This document shows positions 42,675-46,182 of a DNA stretch of 64,000 nt, piece by piece. The stretch is from NCBI RefSeq assembly GCF_054482595.1, contig NZ_CM137008.1. One strand, given 5' to 3'. Under the pieces are notes generated by a model. The model was not told the DNA's origin and made no database searches. It saw only the letters and a program-made list of their open reading frames with translations. Each line of letters opens with the position of its first letter. Position 1 is the first letter of the stretch. Made by a program: the position numbers and the translations under genes.

Positions 42675-42724
42675 TTATTCATTTGCCGGAGTGGGCGAAC
42701 ACCCACTCCGGCAAAATCACTTCT

Positions 42725-44206
42725 CTACGCTAATCCCAGGCGCTGAAACTGCTCTGGCGGCGCATCATTATCTTTCATCAACTGAATCAGCAACGCGATC
42801 ATCCGGGACTCGATCACATCATCATGAATCGGATGTAGCTGCTGCGGATCGTTTTGCAGATCAAACAGCAAATGACCAAACTGATTCAACCCCTTATATT
42901 TTTCCTGTGCCGGGATGCGTAATACCTGTAACCCTTTGGTAAAACGAAACGGTGGGGCCAGCGATAAAGCCCGCATCTCATCCACCGGATAGCGGCTGTT
43001 CATTTTGCAGGACATCAACGTGTAGTTGGCAATATCATCCTCACGCCCCGGCAGCGCTGCACGCATATAGACAAAACGCCCATCGGTTACGTTAACATGA
43101 CCACTGAAGACACCAAACATCGCCGAGCTGCGTACTGGTTCATCGTGACTGACCGTTTTCGCCAGCGGTTGCCCCTGCACATCGGGCGGCACTGGCTGTT
43201 GAAAAAAGTCATACAACGTTGGCGCCCAGTCGATCATTTGTACCAGTGCCTGTCGCCGCTCTCCTTTTACACCACTGCGCGGGTCCCAGATAAACAACGG
43301 ATTATTGGCAACTTCGTTGTAATAAGGCATCTGGTTTTTCGCCCACCAGCCATGCTCACCGAGTAAAAAGCCGTGGTCAGTGCCGACAATCAGCATGGTA
43401 TCTCGCCACAGATCGTGCTCATCCATCAGGTCGAGAATGCGCCCCAGGTTGCGATCGCACATCGACACCAACGAACGATACCGGCAACGGATGTGCTCCA
43501 CGGCCTCGTCGCTTTCCTGCACCCGGCCACGCGGCCAGTCATAATGCGGTCCATCCCAGTTATCTTCATACAAGGAAAGATACTCTTCCGTTGTGTGAAA
43601 CGGCTCGTGCGGATCAAACGTTTCGACCTGCAATAACCAGTTATCTTCCGCGTGATTTTTGTGGATAAAGGCACAGCCTGCATCAAACACTTTAGTTTGT
43701 GGAAAATCCGCTTCCTGCTGAATATATTCCCGGTTTGCCCAGTCATGGCGCCACAGACCAGAAACACCGCCACCGGTCTGCTTTTGCGGCACCCGTAGCA
43801 CCTCGGGAATAGGCGGTTGCGCAACGCTTGCATGCCAGTGATCGCCTTCCTGTCCGCGCACAATCTCCCACGAACTGTAGCGATTATGATAATTCCCGCC
43901 GCCATCTTCCCAGTAATGCAAATGATCGCTTATCAGGTGGGTATAGATCCCCGCCTTTTTAAGCAGCTCCGGCATGGAATCGTCAAACGGTTCTAACGGC
44001 CCCCACTCCCGATGCAGGAAGTTACATCGCCCGGTATGCAACTCCCGCCGGGCAGGCATACACGGCATACTGCCGACGTAACTGTTTTCAAAGGTGGCGG
44101 CATGAGCCGCCAGACGTTGGAAATTAGGCGCTTTGGTTAACGCATCGCCATAAGGTGGCAGATAACGTTTATTCAGACTATCGAACAGCAGAATAATCGC
44201 TCTCAT
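42725..44206 (-). CDS. Cys-type sulfatase (alkaline-phosphatase superfamily), apparently cytoplasmic
   Basis: 493-aa ORF with the sulfatase formylglycine signature C-x-P-x-R...TGR (SMPCMPARRELHTGR) near the N-terminus; no recognisable signal peptide; last gene of a three-gene operon not expected at this K-12 position. Confidence 0.85.
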   Translation of the reverse strand: MRAIILLFDSLNKRYLPPYGDALTKAPNFQRLAAHAATFENSYVGSMPCMPARRELHTGRCNFLHREWGPLEPFDDSMPELLKKAGIYTHLISDHLHYWEDGGGNYHNRYSSWEIVRGQEGDHWHASVAQPPIPEVLRVPQKQTGGGVSGLWRHDWANREYIQQEADFPQTKVFDAGCAFIHKNHAEDNWLLQVETFDPHEPFHTTEEYLSLYEDNWDGPHYDWPRGRVQESDEAVEHIRCRYRSLVSMCDRNLGRILDLMDEHDLWRDTMLIVGTDHGFLLGEHGWWAKNQMPYYNEVANNPLFIWDPRSGVKGERRQALVQMIDWAPTLYDFFQQPVPPDVQGQPLAKTVSHDEPVRSSAMFGVFSGHVNVTDGRFVYMRAALPGREDDIANYTLMSCKMNSRYPVDEMRALSLAPPFRFTKGLQVLRIPAQEKYKGLNQFGHLLFDLQNDPQQLHPIHDDVIESRMIALLIQLMKDNDAPPEQFQRLGLA

Positions 44207-44217
44207 TACGCCCTACC

Positions 44218-44538
44218 TTATTGATTAATTAAATGCGGATAATGTTGCTGAACCACTTCATAAATTTGCTGACCAATAGTTTCACCGTCCATAATATTCT
44301 CTATCGGGATCAGATATTGCCCTTGTTTCGGGTCAAGACTAACCACATCGAGTAATTTTTTGGAAATTGCAAAAATATCCGCCCAGTCGGTAAATCCTCC
44401 TACTTCACCTGCGGCGGTATGTTCCATTTCAACTTTGAAATCATATTTGGTCAGCGCTTTTTTAACGACCGTTTGTAACATAACGCTACTGCCTACACCG
44501 TAACCACAGACAAACAGAATATTAATTGTATCTTTCAT
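44218..44538 (-). CDS. PTS EIIB component, L-ascorbate (UlaB/SgaB)-like
   Basis: 106-aa ORF MKDTINILFVCGYGVGSS...: small IIB fold with phosphorylatable Cys near the N-terminus, resembling UlaB/GatB-type IIB. Confidence 0.8.
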   Translation of the reverse strand: MKDTINILFVCGYGVGSSVMLQTVVKKALTKYDFKVEMEHTAAGEVGGFTDWADIFAISKKLLDVVSLDPKQGQYLIPIENIMDGETIGQQIYEVVQQHYPHLINQ

Positions 44539-44559
44539 TTTTAAACCCTTAATATTTAA

Positions 44560-45903
44560 TTAACCCGCGTAAGGACCAAGATGGAATGTTGCAGCGATAA
44601 ATTTCAGAACTTCACAAATAGCAGGCCATACGGTTGCCCAGTCAAATATTCCTGTCCAGCCGACGCCATTTTCAGCAAGCCCGGTTAACGGAATAGCCCA
44701 CACCGTACCGAAGGTCTGAATAATACCCAGCAAGAACGTACAGATAATTACGGAACGGTATCCGCCCATGCGGTTTGCTAATACGCCAATTGGACCGCCA
44801 GAGAAAAACAGAGGTACAAAGCCAGGCAATACCATAATTGGGCTGTGAACCAGTAATAAGATCCCCATCGAAAAAATGGTGCCAAAAGTACAGAAGACGA
44901 AGCCTAACGTTGCGGCATTGGGTGAAAAAGGCAACAGCGCGGCGACATCGACGGCGGGAATGGCATTAGGAATAAAGCGATCCTGCCAGCCTTTAAACGA
45001 ACCGTTAATTTCGCCCACCATCATGCGCACACCCTGCAGCAGAATGACCATATACATGGAGAACTGTAAGCCAAGGTTGATGATATAGATGTACCAGGGC
45101 TTGCCTTTCGCCATTAACTGGACATTATCGATACCCGTTGATAGCAAGAAACCACCGACAAACAGCGTCATCACAATGGCGATAGCCGTTACGTTATGGT
45201 TAAAAATCGCCAGCCACCCGGGGAGTTTCAGGTTTTCAGCATCGTGCTTTTCGGGGTCACCAAATTTATGGGCGAATTTGGAGAAAAACCACAATCCCAA
45301 CATCTGGTTATGAGCAATGGTAAAACCAGCATCTTTGGTAACTTTGGCAATGGGCTTAACAATGAGCGTGGTGGAGAACGCCCAGAATACACCCGTTAAT
45401 ATTCCGGCAATAATAATGGATGTAGTCCAGCTAAAACCCAGCCAAAAGACAATCAACCATAATACCGCCTGAGAATGTGAAACACCGGTATTCCCTGTCA
45501 AAAATATCCCTTTGGCACCAGTATACCGACCAAATAATACCAGCAGCAGGTTGGTAAAAAACGCCAGTACAAATACATACCCGACATAACCAAAATTATC
45601 CCCCAATGCAATTTGCGTTGCCGCTTTCATTGCGTAGGAATCCATTAAATATCCGTGAACACCATAGGCTTTACTTACGGCTTCTGCTACCGGTTTAAAT
45701 GTTGCGGAAAACTGGAAACCACCAAATAACACCATCATTAATCCCACCATGGCGCTGACCATGCCGGTAATAATTTTTATTGGCGATTTCTTATCAAGGG
45801 CATAACCAATACCCACCAGCAAACCAATTAAAATTGCCGGTTCAGTTAAAAACGTTTGAATAACATCTATGAATTTGGCAAACATCGTCGGAACGCCCTC
45901 CAT
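44560..45903 (-). CDS. PTS EIIC component, L-ascorbate (UlaA/SgaT) family
   Basis: 447-aa polytopic membrane ORF with clear similarity to UlaA (for example ENLKLPGWLAIFNHN versus UlaA EDLKLPGWLNIFHDN; GVRMMVGEI versus GVRMFVAEL); true start could be the Met at 45885. Confidence 0.85.
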   Translation of the reverse strand: MEGVPTMFAKFIDVIQTFLTEPAILIGLLVGIGYALDKKSPIKIITGMVSAMVGLMMVLFGGFQFSATFKPVAEAVSKAYGVHGYLMDSYAMKAATQIALGDNFGYVGYVFVLAFFTNLLLVLFGRYTGAKGIFLTGNTGVSHSQAVLWLIVFWLGFSWTTSIIIAGILTGVFWAFSTTLIVKPIAKVTKDAGFTIAHNQMLGLWFFSKFAHKFGDPEKHDAENLKLPGWLAIFNHNVTAIAIVMTLFVGGFLLSTGIDNVQLMAKGKPWYIYIINLGLQFSMYMVILLQGVRMMVGEINGSFKGWQDRFIPNAIPAVDVAALLPFSPNAATLGFVFCTFGTIFSMGILLLVHSPIMVLPGFVPLFFSGGPIGVLANRMGGYRSVIICTFLLGIIQTFGTVWAIPLTGLAENGVGWTGIFDWATVWPAICEVLKFIAATFHLGPYAG

Positions 45904-46088
45904 AAGCGTACATTTCCGTTGTCAATGCATGAACCTTCTGCTGACGTTAATAATGTCTCAGGAAATTTTGTGTTTCGCTAAGCAATGCCTCTGTATGTAT
46001 TCGGTAAGTGCACTGTAGTAATCAAAACAGTTCAATTAAAGATCTTATTTGATTATTTGTGATTTGATTTGCAAAAATAGAGCAATAT

Positions 46089-46133
46089 ATAACCGTGATC
46101 GATCGGTTATTATTAATCGATCGATCACGATTA
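46089..46133. promoter_or_regulatory. About 21-bp inverted repeat with four GATC sites upstream of the PTS-sulfatase operon (candidate operator or bidirectional terminator)
   Basis: ataaccgtgatcgatcggttat ... taatcgatcgatcacgattat: arms are reverse complements apart from 2 mismatches; lies between the rlmC 3' end and the PTS IIC start. Confidence 0.5.
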
Positions 46134-46182
46134 TTATTTTGAGTGAATAGTTGTTGCCGAAAAATTTACTGCCGTGATGTAT

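Follow-up and report, generated by a model that had tools for sequence, protein, structure and literature searches.

What would an E. coli cell gain from a PTS that is encoded next to an intracellular sulfatase? The question arises from the interval between artJ (plus strand, ending at 42674) and rlmC (minus strand, 46183-47310) in a 64,000-nucleotide stretch of DNA, here called the window, which is 100% identical to E. coli XH990. In this interval, the list of open reading frames (ORFs) contains three intact minus-strand genes in the same orientation, encoding a sulfatase, a PTS EIIB, and a PTS EIIC (Table 1), and the RefSeq annotation of XH990 has the same three genes. A first-pass annotation, made from the sequence alone, had described these co-oriented genes and stated that artJ and rlmC are adjacent in K-12. 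They are indeed adjacent, separated in strain MC4100 by a 198-bp spacer with REP-like repeats and without the three genes. The same annotation listed several missing components, and neither the ORFs nor the RefSeq annotation place a gene for an EIIA, a regulator, a formylglycine-generating enzyme, or an anaerobic sulfatase maturase in the operon. Its view that the substrate and role are uncharacterized agrees with our literature search, which found no published characterization of this operon.

Table 1. Features of the artJ-rlmC interval, in window coordinates.
Feature	Position	Strand	Basis
G+C-rich hairpin where artJ (stop at 42674) and the sulfatase gene (stop at 42725) converge	42682..42715		Folding and sequence
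Cys-type S1 sulfatase, leaderless, 493 aa, formylglycine position C49	42725-44206	-	ORF, Pfam, AF2
PTS EIIB, UlaB-like, PF02302 type, 106 aa, phosphorylatable Cys11	44218-44538	-	ORF, UlaB comparison
PTS EIIC, L-ascorbate family, UlaA paralogue, annotated 447 aa	44560-45903	-	NF009550
Candidate -10 hexamer TACAGT of the inferred operon promoter	46012..46017	-	Conservation
Candidate repressor operator, inverted half-sites TAATCAAA (46055-46048) and TTTGATTA (46026-46019)	46019..46055	-	
CRP-like site TGCAA-N6-TCACA, ~61 bp upstream of the inferred transcription start	46058..46073	-	Conservation
Inverted repeat, perfect over 12 bp (CGTGATCGATCG/CGATCGATCACG) and containing four GATC sites, directly downstream of rlmC	46094..46129		

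The cluster begins and ends exactly at two stop codons, with no repeats there, and its G+C content over the EIIB and EIIC genes (0.41-0.49) is only mildly lower. Neither the ORFs nor the RefSeq annotation show mobility genes in the artJ-rlmC interval, and the cluster does not have the hallmarks of a genomic island (an integrase or transposase, a tRNA or direct-repeat boundary, a variable insertion site). We found it, with all three ORFs full length, in 566 of 5426 complete E. coli genomes, or about 1 in 10 strains, O157:H7 among them. The same rlmC/artJ site is occupied in Salmonella, in E. whittamii, and in the cryptic Escherichia clades. Because the site is shared with these relatives and mobility genes are absent, loss is the more parsimonious history; the cluster was probably present in the ancestor and has since disappeared from most E. 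coli, and the earlier description of it as inserted probably has the direction wrong. In Enterobacter, Leclercia, and Silvania, the cassette occupies a different position, which implies some transfer among enterics.

The missing EIIA, regulator, and maturase, the loss of the cluster from ~90% of E. coli, and the truncated sulfatase variants (P0031, P0036, P0079) and IS1 insertion (H70) seen in some strains would all suit a decaying, nonfunctional leftover, a possibility that the first-pass annotation had also entertained. Such decay is barely plausible given the full-length ORFs in 566 genomes and the pattern of divergence between the two E. coli alleles. These are ~9% apart, with dN/dS of 0.010 for EIIC, 0.035 for EIIB, and 0.046 for the sulfatase, the same as for the housekeeping genes on either side, rlmC and artJ; at such values, the three genes are under purifying selection. 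The EIIA-less layout and a conserved promoter block also recur in every enteric genus examined, and the ula regulon, UlaC included, is present in 5425 of the 5426 E. coli genomes.

The sulfatase opens straight with its first beta-strand (MRAIILLFDS) and thus has no signal peptide, and its signature is complete (C49-M-P-A-R-R-E-L-H-T-G-R, for CxPxR...TGR), both as first read. It matches Pfam Sulfatase (E 1.7e-28) and SGSH_C (E 9e-9), and its AF2 model (pLDDT 89.6, pTM 0.92) has the S1 sulfatase fold, which is alkaline-phosphatase-like with two domains. In a Foldseek search of the PDB, the best 50 matches listed all fall to S1 sulfatases or to phosphonate monoester hydrolases (E ~1e-24 to 1e-20). 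The catalytic residue, whose possible absence had been flagged, is in place: C49 aligns with the formylglycine position of 7P24 and 5G2V and is invariant across 53 homologues, as are P51, R53, D9, H95, H97, H200, D277, H278, and K290, and the DHG...GEHG...K residues align with PDB sulfatases. Ser10 stands where the usual DD pair has its second Asp. In the sequence alignment, the lysine of the usual GKWH is apparently replaced (SDHLHYWE; S93-D94-H95), and so the chemistry may deviate from that of standard S1 enzymes.

With known S1 sulfatases (the Bacteroides GlcNAc-6-sulfatases 5G2V and 7P24, the choline sulfatase BetC 6FNY, and arylsulfatases A and B), the window enzyme has in common the fold, the signature, an association with an anaerobic maturase, and probably the metal-binding Asp/His residues and the catalytic His and Lys. 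It differs from them in being cytoplasmic and PTS-coupled, and its identity to proteins of solved structure is just 15-19%, with TM-scores of 0.6-0.68. Curated NCBIfam equivalogs (arylsulfatase PRK13759, choline-sulfatase TIGR03417, PehA, and Mn-arylsulfatase) gave 57-112 bits against cutoffs of 433-900, scores so far below the cutoffs that the enzyme belongs to none of these characterized subfamilies. Given its cytoplasmic location and PTS coupling, the substrate is probably a phosphorylated small molecule and not a glycan. Mammalian arylsulfatases A and B hydrolyze ascorbate-2-sulfate, and we propose that the window enzyme would act as an ascorbate-2-sulfate (6-phosphate) sulfohydrolase. E. 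coli K-12 also has YidJ-YidK, a putative cytoplasmic sulfatase beside a sodium:solute symporter and another uncharacterized pairing of a leaderless Cys-type sulfatase with a transporter gene. YidJ, however, is of a different sulfatase subfamily, its partner is a symporter rather than a PTS, and PDB entries named "putative sulfatase yidJ" match the window enzyme weakly (E ~1e-7).

The transporter genes belong to the L-ascorbate PTS family, in line with their first identification as UlaA/SgaT-like and UlaB-like. EIIC matches NCBIfam NF009550 (EIIC-GAT / PRK12997 type) over its full length with 964 bits (cutoff, 583) and is 38.9% identical to K-12 UlaA, whereas it scores 321 bits with the UlaA equivalog NF006919, under the cutoff of 380; its orthologues match PF03611. 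Its start is more likely ATG 45885 (441 aa) than ATG 45903, since a GGAGGG Shine-Dalgarno sequence lies 10 nt upstream of the former and the latter is not conserved in other genera. EIIB shares 27.6% identity with UlaB and retains the cysteine of the VCGxGxGSS motif (ILFVC11GYGVGSS versus ILAVC9GNGQGSS in UlaB). It gives 42 bits with the UlaB equivalog, under the cutoff of 138, and its orthologues match Pfam PTS_IIB (PF02302). We know of no substrate other than ascorbate that has been demonstrated for this PTS family (L-Asc).

We compared 31 cassette EIICs with the published ascorbate contacts of UlaA (PMC6048161). Y87, H194, D314, F362, R288, G58, and G286 are kept, and five contacts are changed in all cassette EIICs, each to a smaller residue: H135 to N, I136 to T, A, or S, Q139 to S or A, Q195 to N, and S59 to G. 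In UlaA, S59 contacts O3, next to the 2-position. Judged by these residues, the predicted EIIC pocket is a modified UlaA ascorbate pocket. The cassette therefore resembles E. coli UlaABC (SgaTBA) with UlaG/D/E/F in its transporter family, in the core ascorbate contacts and pivot glycines of EIIC, and in the UlaC-like EIIAs of Firmicute cassettes. In contrast to UlaA, its EIIC forms a distinct orthologue group with a systematically altered pocket; the cassette invariably comes with a sulfatase, an enzyme missing from the Ula system, and enteric cassettes encode neither an EIIA nor catabolic enzymes.

We then surveyed the gene neighborhoods of 63 related loci, 41 of which (33 non-enteric and 8 enteric) have a sulfatase at least 60% identical to the window enzyme. 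All sulfatases at or above this identity form one orthologue group, and their loci span Enterobacteria, Lachnospiraceae, Bacillus, Streptococcus, Erysipelotrichaceae, and Olsenella. The same EIIC lies within 8 kb in 36 of the 41, mostly within 400 bp, and EIIB is found in 37, whereas none of the 21 loci with sulfatases at 46-57% identity has this EIIC/EIIB. In Firmicutes, the cassette is usually extended by a DeoR regulator and an ascorbate-type EIIA, the latter at times as part of a sulfatase::EIIA (PF00359) fusion protein (P0044, P0082). An EIIA is present in 15 of the 33 non-enteric loci, or fused to the sulfatase, and in none of the 8 enteric loci; for three of four separate EIIAs, the ascorbate IIA model scored best. 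This linkage across phyla, together with the fusions, strongly supports the initial suggestion of PTS uptake followed by cytoplasmic desulfation. A second, paralogous PTS-sulfatase module is present in some of the same operons.

UlaG/D/E/F genes adjoin the sulfatase in 9 of the 33 non-enteric loci, with neighbor scores of 653 bits for UlaG (cutoff, 306) and 327 bits for UlaD (cutoff, 250). UlaG, UlaD, UlaE, and UlaF are in the same operon as the cassette or divergent to it in L029, L033, L043, L044, and L047, with several Firmicutes combining the cassette and these genes in a single operon, and ula genes accompany the sulfatase without a PTS in L030, L035, and L037. A sulfatase gene, "inserted" in the ascorbate utilization cluster of the ula regulon, was also reported for Sebaldella termitidis (PMC3219644); its authors saw an unrelated insertion and proposed no function. 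Elsewhere the cassettes stand alone, with no ula gene within 8 kb in 24 of the 33 non-enteric and all 8 enteric loci. This pattern, the five altered substrate contacts of EIIC, and the nearest solved relatives by sequence and fold, which are carbohydrate sulfatases such as GlcNAc-6-sulfatases and galactose-6-sulfatases, could instead indicate a different sulfated carbohydrate or sugar acid (such as a hexose, hexuronate, or aldonolactone from host glycans or algae) that is desulfated and passed to central metabolism without Ula enzymes. We think this unlikely, because no glycoside hydrolase, kinase, isomerase, or dehydrogenase recurs as a neighbor in the surveyed loci, where UlaG/D/E/F and a split transketolase are the sole recurrent catabolic neighbors, and because EIIC retains the other UlaA contacts and no substrate but ascorbate is known to us for the family. 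With no other catabolic enzyme as a constant neighbor, the product must enter an existing pathway. The first-pass annotation had offered ascorbate-2-sulfate as speculation; as a candidate it stands, and the adjoining ula genes and modified UlaA pocket now make it the best supported one.

An anaerobic sulfatase maturase (TIGR03942, 458 bits; cutoff, 349) adjoins 11 loci, including enteric Leclercia and Silvania, and ChrA-like and TauE-like anion exporters lie beside the cassette in several Firmicutes. Both observations bear on whether the "sulfatase" might cleave a phosphate or phosphonate ester such as ascorbate-2-phosphate, much as promiscuous phosphonate monoester hydrolases from its superfamily do. 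Such hydrolases (4upk, 2vqr, 2w8s) rank with the best matches in both structure and sequence, Pfam Phosphodiest gives a faint match, and the apparent GKWH replacement would fit. We nevertheless hold ester cleavage of this kind to be very improbable in view of the complete signature, the dedicated maturase, and the sulfate- or chromate-type exporters nearby. Ascorbate-2-sulfate is, moreover, a known metabolite, and we know of no natural ascorbate-2-phosphate in the environment. Clostridial variants have a TctABC-type transporter in place of the PTS, suggesting that the sulfatase may not need a phosphorylated substrate. Our model does not explain an arylsulfotransferase-like gene that neighbors the cassette in Enterobacter, Leclercia, Silvania, and a single Lachnospiraceae locus.

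Upstream of EIIC, the candidate -10 position reads TAnnGT or TAnnAT in 9 enteric sequences from 6 genera, and a simple sigma-70 scan did not pick up this hexamer. Across all 9 enteric sequences, the CRP-like site never varies in its TCACA half and keeps TGCA(A/T) as the other half; its position would be consistent with class I activation. The half-site pair is conserved across genera and in three different genomic contexts. When a matrix of the half-sites was run over 10 kb of the K-12 ula locus, the best match fell in the ulaR-ulaG spacer and 5 more in the ulaG-ulaA spacer; these 6 matches compare with 1.47 +/- 1.17 in shuffles and were reached by 5 of 1000, which in this A+T-rich DNA is moderately significant. 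SELEX placed UlaR in the same ulaR-ulaG and ulaG-ulaA regions (PMC5934670), and the pair is possibly a UlaR operator. The hairpin beyond the sulfatase gene (dG -27.7 kcal/mol, z -7.8, equally good folds in 0 of 200 shuffles) is flanked on both sides by A/T runs and is probably a bidirectional intrinsic terminator marking the operon 3' end. The inverted repeat below rlmC (dG -26.2 kcal/mol, z -6.4), kept in Escherichia and Salmonella only, is probably a terminator or insulator between rlmC and the operon.

Many bacterial sulfatases are members of sulfate-starvation regulons, and the operon itself encodes no catabolic enzymes; the ester might then be imported mainly for its sulfate under sulfur limitation, with the carbon incidental. 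The conserved CRP-like site and sugar-repressor-like operator fit carbon control instead, as do the DeoR-type sugar repressors of Firmicute cassettes. The exporters suggest that sulfate is expelled as waste, and a PTS spends PEP on phosphorylating the carbon skeleton. Sulfur acquisition is thus quite improbable.

We lean somewhat toward a model in which the three genes would act together as a self-contained front end, feeding sulfated vitamin C to the existing Ula pathway. Transcription would start at a CRP-dependent promoter and be blocked by a repressor, possibly UlaR, at the two inverted half-sites, so that control by UlaR and CRP is possibly borrowed. Phosphate would pass from PEP through EI, HPr, and an EIIA encoded outside the operon, in E. 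coli most probably UlaC, to Cys11 of EIIB. EIIC, with its probably enlarged ascorbate pocket, would bind L-ascorbate-2-sulfate or a very similar sulfated analogue and free it inside the cell phosphorylated at C6. We infer that desulfation follows: the sulfatase, its Cys49 converted to formylglycine probably by an AslB/YdeM-type anaerobic maturase, would remove the sulfate to give L-ascorbate-6-phosphate, which UlaG, UlaD, UlaE, and UlaF would convert to D-xylulose-5-phosphate. UlaC and the maturase are likely the borrowed parts.

Tentatively, and with slightly less confidence, this may be the first PTS specialized for a sulfated substrate and also the first L-ascorbate-2-sulfate pathway in bacteria, in which a UlaA-derived EIIC would import and 6-phosphorylate the compound and an uncharacterized cytoplasmic sulfatase subfamily would act on the phosphorylated intermediate. 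If so, the subfamily would represent structurally unrepresented cytoplasmic formylglycine sulfatases, and the paralogous second module may point to a broader class of systems that combine a PTS with an intracellular sulfatase. The literature describes ascorbate-2-sulfate as a recognized metabolite of mammalian plasma and urine. Gene neighborhoods in other bacteria suggest that gut bacteria may feed on it, and gut Firmicutes, Salmonella, and E. coli O157:H7 could, if the model is true, harvest a vitamin C metabolite excreted by the host.

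ORF calling in the interval between artJ and rlmC recovered three co-oriented minus-strand genes, encoding a sulfatase, a PTS EIIB, and a PTS EIIC, as the first-pass annotation had described. Over its whole length the window shows 100% identity to E. coli XH990, which was isolated from urine in China and in which RefSeq labels the trio 'sulfatase', 'PTS sugar transporter subunit IIB', and 'PTS sugar transporter subunit IIC'. In K-12 (MC4100), artJ and rlmC are neighbors separated by a 198-bp spacer with REP-like repeats, and homology to the window ends exactly at both stop codons, so the claimed absence of the cluster from K-12 at this site held up. 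The annotated EIIC start, ATG 45903, leaves a GGAGGG Shine-Dalgarno sequence inside the ORF, and its position reads ACG, CAT, or TGG in other genera, being conserved only within Escherichia and Salmonella. The true start is likely the ATG at 45885 (441 aa), which has GGAGGG upstream and is conserved across genera.

Features of the artJ-rlmC interval, in window coordinates
Feature	Position	Strand	Basis or remark
artJ stop	42674	+	flank of cluster
G+C-rich hairpin	42682-42715		probable end of operon, facing artJ
Sulfatase, 493 aa	42725-44206	-	ORF calling
PTS EIIB, 106 aa	44218-44538	-	ORF calling
PTS EIIC, 447 aa as annotated	44560-45903	-	ORF calling
Putative -10 hexamer, TAnnGT	46017-46012	-	predicted, conserved block
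Putative inverted half-sites, TAATCAAA / TTTGATTA	46055-46048 / 46026-46019	-	predicted, conserved block
CRP-like TGCAA-N6-TCACA	46073-46058	-	predicted, conserved block
Perfect 12-bp inverted repeat, CGTGATCGATCG...CGATCGATCACG	46094-46129		four Dam GATC sites; between rlmC and promoter
rlmC	46183-47310	-	flank of cluster

Elsewhere in the window, positions 35400-37800 are A+T rich (G+C, 0.31-0.38) and contain a 599-aa minus-strand ORF (35628-37427); in XH990, RefSeq calls this part an incomplete pentapeptide-repeat protein pseudogene beside ybjP. Between artM and artJ lies a REP/BIME-type element (41685-41765) that matches Rfam naRNA4 (RF02564) on the minus strand at 72.4 bits, above the gathering score.

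Of 5426 complete E. coli genomes, 566 have the cluster, always as a single chromosomal copy. There are two allele classes: one shares 99% identity or more with the window (409 genomes, including O157:H7, O145, and others), and the other shares about 91% (155 genomes). In one copy an IS1 element interrupts the cluster. Salmonella enterica carries the trio at the identical rlmC/artJ site, the LT2 EIIC being STM0884, annotated 'ulaA' (PMC3844500). E. whittamii and two further Escherichia lineages likewise have the cluster there. ECs0944 of O157 Sakai is artM; we take the Sakai cluster to be ECs0940-0942 and the remaining LT2 genes to run up to STM0886. The first-pass annotation had the operon inserted between artJ and rlmC, of which the location stands and the insertion is probably wrong. 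Because relatives share the site and no mobility genes or boundary repeats were found at the cluster, we reject a recently inserted mobile island and consider ancestral presence followed by loss from most E. coli the more parsimonious history. In Enterobacter, Leclercia, and Silvania the cassette sits at a different site, so some transfer has taken place too. A further explanation, that the cluster is a dead remnant, is countered by dN/dS between the two E. coli alleles (sulfatase, 0.046; IIB, 0.035; IIC, 0.010; compared with 0.040 for rlmC and 0.016 for artJ in the flanks). These low values indicate purifying selection on the trio, and on them we rejected a pseudogenized remnant.

The EIIC matches NF009550 at 964 bits (cutoff, 583) and is 38.9% identical to K-12 UlaA, the EIIC of the L-ascorbate PTS, yet it falls under the UlaA equivalog cutoff and is not an ortholog of UlaA. 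The EIIB resembles UlaB, and its active-site Cys is retained. In UlaA, ascorbate is contacted by T86, Y87, H135, I136, Q139, H194, Q195, D314, I358, F362, and M410, S59 and R288 bond O3, and G58 and G286 serve as pivots (PMC6048161). The 31 cassette EIICs retain Y87, H194, D314, F362, R288, G58, and G286, with conservative changes at T86, I358, and M410. At five other positions all 31 have smaller residues: N for H135, T/A/S for I136, S/A for Q139, N for Q195, and G for S59, the O3 contact that lies beside the 2-position of ascorbate. Five smaller pocket residues are what one would predict if the ligand were ascorbate-like but bore an additional bulky group.

In Pfam, the sulfatase has matches to Sulfatase (E = 1.7e-28) and SGSH_C, and it carries the motif C49-M-P-A-R-R-E-L-H-T-G-R; its N terminus enters the first beta-strand straight away, and it is therefore predicted to be leaderless and cytoplasmic. 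It scores far under every curated cutoff of the named NCBIfam sulfatases and has no close solved relative, the top PDB sequence matches (E of about 1e-22) covering mostly the C-terminal half. A high-confidence AlphaFold model (pLDDT, 89.6; pTM, 0.92) aligned with S1 sulfatases and phosphonate monoester hydrolases at a TM score of only 0.6-0.68 and 15-19% identity. By sequence, the protein falls outside every characterized subfamily. One rival explanation is that this 'sulfatase' is a phosphoesterase. The catalytic positions are invariant across its homologs, and residues 93-100 (about 43907-43930), at the site of the usual G-K-W-H motif, read as an invariant S-D-H-L-H-Y-W-E, so that the sulfate-binding lysine of that motif seems to be replaced. 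Conservation is unusually high, with 62-67% identity between the E. coli protein and those of Clostridia and Bacilli.

A scan of one genome per species yielded 63 related loci, to which we then applied ORF calling, clustering, tblastn searches, and NCBIfam. Where the sulfatase is at least 60% identical, the cassette EIIC lies alongside in 36 of 41 loci and the EIIB in 37 of 41, versus none of the 21 loci with 46-57% identity; the PTS-linked sulfatases therefore form one ortholog group. Firmicutes usually have a DeoR-type regulator as well (20 of 33 loci) and an EIIA of the PF00359 family (15 of 33), and three of the four cassette EIIAs tested scored highest on the ascorbate IIA model. In some proteins (P0044 and P0082) the EIIA is fused to the sulfatase C terminus, a gene architecture that is strong evidence for PTS and sulfatase serving one process. 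An anaerobic sulfatase maturase (TIGR03942, above cutoff) adjoins in 11 loci, including those of the enterics Leclercia and Silvania.

Ascorbate-catabolism genes surround the sulfatase in 9 of the 33 non-enteric loci. In Neobacillus niacini (L029), one strand reads EIIA-IIC-IIB-sulfatase-UlaG-IIB-like-UlaD-UlaE-UlaF, with UlaG at 653 bits (cutoff, 306) and UlaD at 327 bits (cutoff, 250), and four loci (L033, L043, L044, and L047) have similar arrangements. In three Clostridium loci (L030, L035, and L037), the sulfatase lies downstream of UlaG-UlaF-epimerase-split transketolase. A TctCBA-type transporter takes the place of the PTS in L035 and L037, where the order (positions ~1-11500) is TctC-TctB-TctA, UlaG, UlaF, an IolO-like epimerase, the split transketolase, an MtaA/URO-D-like protein, a 339-aa protein, a GntR regulator, and the sulfatase; no kinase is visible in this non-PTS variant. 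The 339-aa protein, which has faint FG-GAP matches, also directly follows the sulfatase in L047. For the conserved neighbor f29, Pfam gave only faint FG-GAP matches. In L030 and L037, a TRAP transporter was considered for the genes that follow the sulfatase and rejected, since NCBIfam identified them as spoIIIA sporulation genes, unrelated neighbors.

The substrate could also be another sulfated sugar; no other recurrent catabolic enzyme was found among the related loci. On evidence that is entirely comparative, it is quite probable that the PTS imports a sulfated ascorbate-like compound and that desulfation then takes place in the cytoplasm, and we lean slightly toward ascorbate-2-sulfate or a close analog as the substrate itself. 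Another rival is that the operon serves sulfur scavenging. ChrA-like split gene pairs of the chromate-transporter family (L022, L025, L031, and L049) and TauE/SafE-like permease genes (L029, L038, L040, L061, and L073) recur beside the cassette in Firmicutes, the ChrA label coming from NCBIfam matches under the curated cutoff and the TauE label from sequence reading alone, with no NCBIfam match; such exporters may expel released sulfate.

Bacillus sp. FJAT-50079 (L043), Dielma and a relative (L023 and L051), and a Lachnospiraceae genome (L032) have a second, paralogous module that either adjoins the first one or shares a ula-type operon with it. It comprises an EIIC (33-36% identical) and an EIIB, with a different sulfatase (~20% identical) in L023, L043, and L051. 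Systems that pair a PTS with an intracellular sulfatase may thus form a wider class. A divergent arylsulfotransferase-like gene (PF05935) stands beside the cassette in L011, L018, L019, and L032, with a remnant in L013. The protein of Enterobacter hormaechei (L011, 4466-5881; 471 aa) has no signal peptide and is therefore predicted to be cytoplasmic; the role of this gene falls outside the mechanism proposed below.

We aligned the region 5' of EIIC from nine enteric sequences representing six genera and three genomic contexts, which revealed one conserved block (46075-46010, minus strand) containing the promoter elements listed in the table. A half-site matrix run on 10 kb of the K-12 ula locus placed its top match in the ulaR-ulaG spacer and five more in the ulaG-ulaA spacer, six matches versus 1.47 +/- 1.17 in dinucleotide shuffles (six reached by 5 of 1000). 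Genomic SELEX found UlaR bound in both spacers (PMC5934670), and since the matches fall in these regions, UlaR control of the operon is plausible. In a simple sigma-70 and terminator scan, the number of sites did not exceed that in shuffles, and the conserved promoter block went undetected. A search of the ~100-nt 5' UTR against Rfam gave no riboswitch or leader RNA. The inverted repeat between rlmC and the promoter is conserved in Escherichia and Salmonella, not in other cassette-bearing enterics, and could be a terminator, an insulator, or a methylation-sensitive site. Inside EIIC, a weak sigma-54-like sequence, TGGCACCATTTTTTCGAT (44867-44884, minus strand), has 3 mismatches and is matched as well by 13 of 100 shuffles; it corresponds to the intragenic sigma-54 site of Salmonella STM0884 (PMC3844500).

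In the proposed mechanism, phosphate would pass from PEP through EI and HPr to a borrowed EIIA, in E. coli most likely UlaC because 5425 of 5426 genomes have the ula regulon. This EIIA would phosphorylate EIIB Cys11, and the EIIC would import L-ascorbate-2-sulfate, phosphorylating C6. The formylglycine sulfatase would strip the 2-sulfate; its maturase is probably an anaerobic one of the AslB/YdeM type, in keeping with a Ula pathway that is used anaerobically. The resulting L-ascorbate-6-phosphate would both induce the UlaG/D/E/F route and enter it. Desulfation may come before or after phosphorylation, because non-PTS variants exist. The cassette would work like the Ula ascorbate PTS with an added deprotection step.

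The cluster sequence is not new, because its genes are generically annotated in hundreds of genomes; the proposed functional assignment is. Literature searches on the operon (sulfatase with PTS and ascorbate; ascorbate-2-sulfate; sulfatase with ulaA or sgaT) found no study, and those under the O157 locus tags of the cluster no functional work; the sole related item was a passing remark on a sulfatase gene 'inserted' in the Sebaldella ula cluster (PMC3219644). In the literature searched, ascorbate-2-sulfate is mentioned only as a metabolite found in mammalian plasma and urine. It is a long-known animal metabolite; we know of no microbial fate for it, of no PTS shown to carry a sulfated substrate, and of no maturation system identified for Cys-type sulfatases in E. 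coli, and to our knowledge most cytoplasmic sulfatases of gut bacteria have no assigned function. Specialists would be surprised by a PTS that takes up a sulfated vitamin and by a cytoplasmic sulfatase coupled to a PTS, although the reach is one accessory nutrient pathway. If correct, the assignment would give a function to three widely annotated, nameless genes and define a new sulfatase subfamily with a phosphorylated small-molecule substrate. It would also provide a simple genetic test bed, three genes moved into K-12, for studying how formylglycine forms in the E. coli cytoplasm, and would reveal a nutrient niche that sets O157:H7, O145, Salmonella, and many Lachnospiraceae apart from K-12-like E. 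coli.
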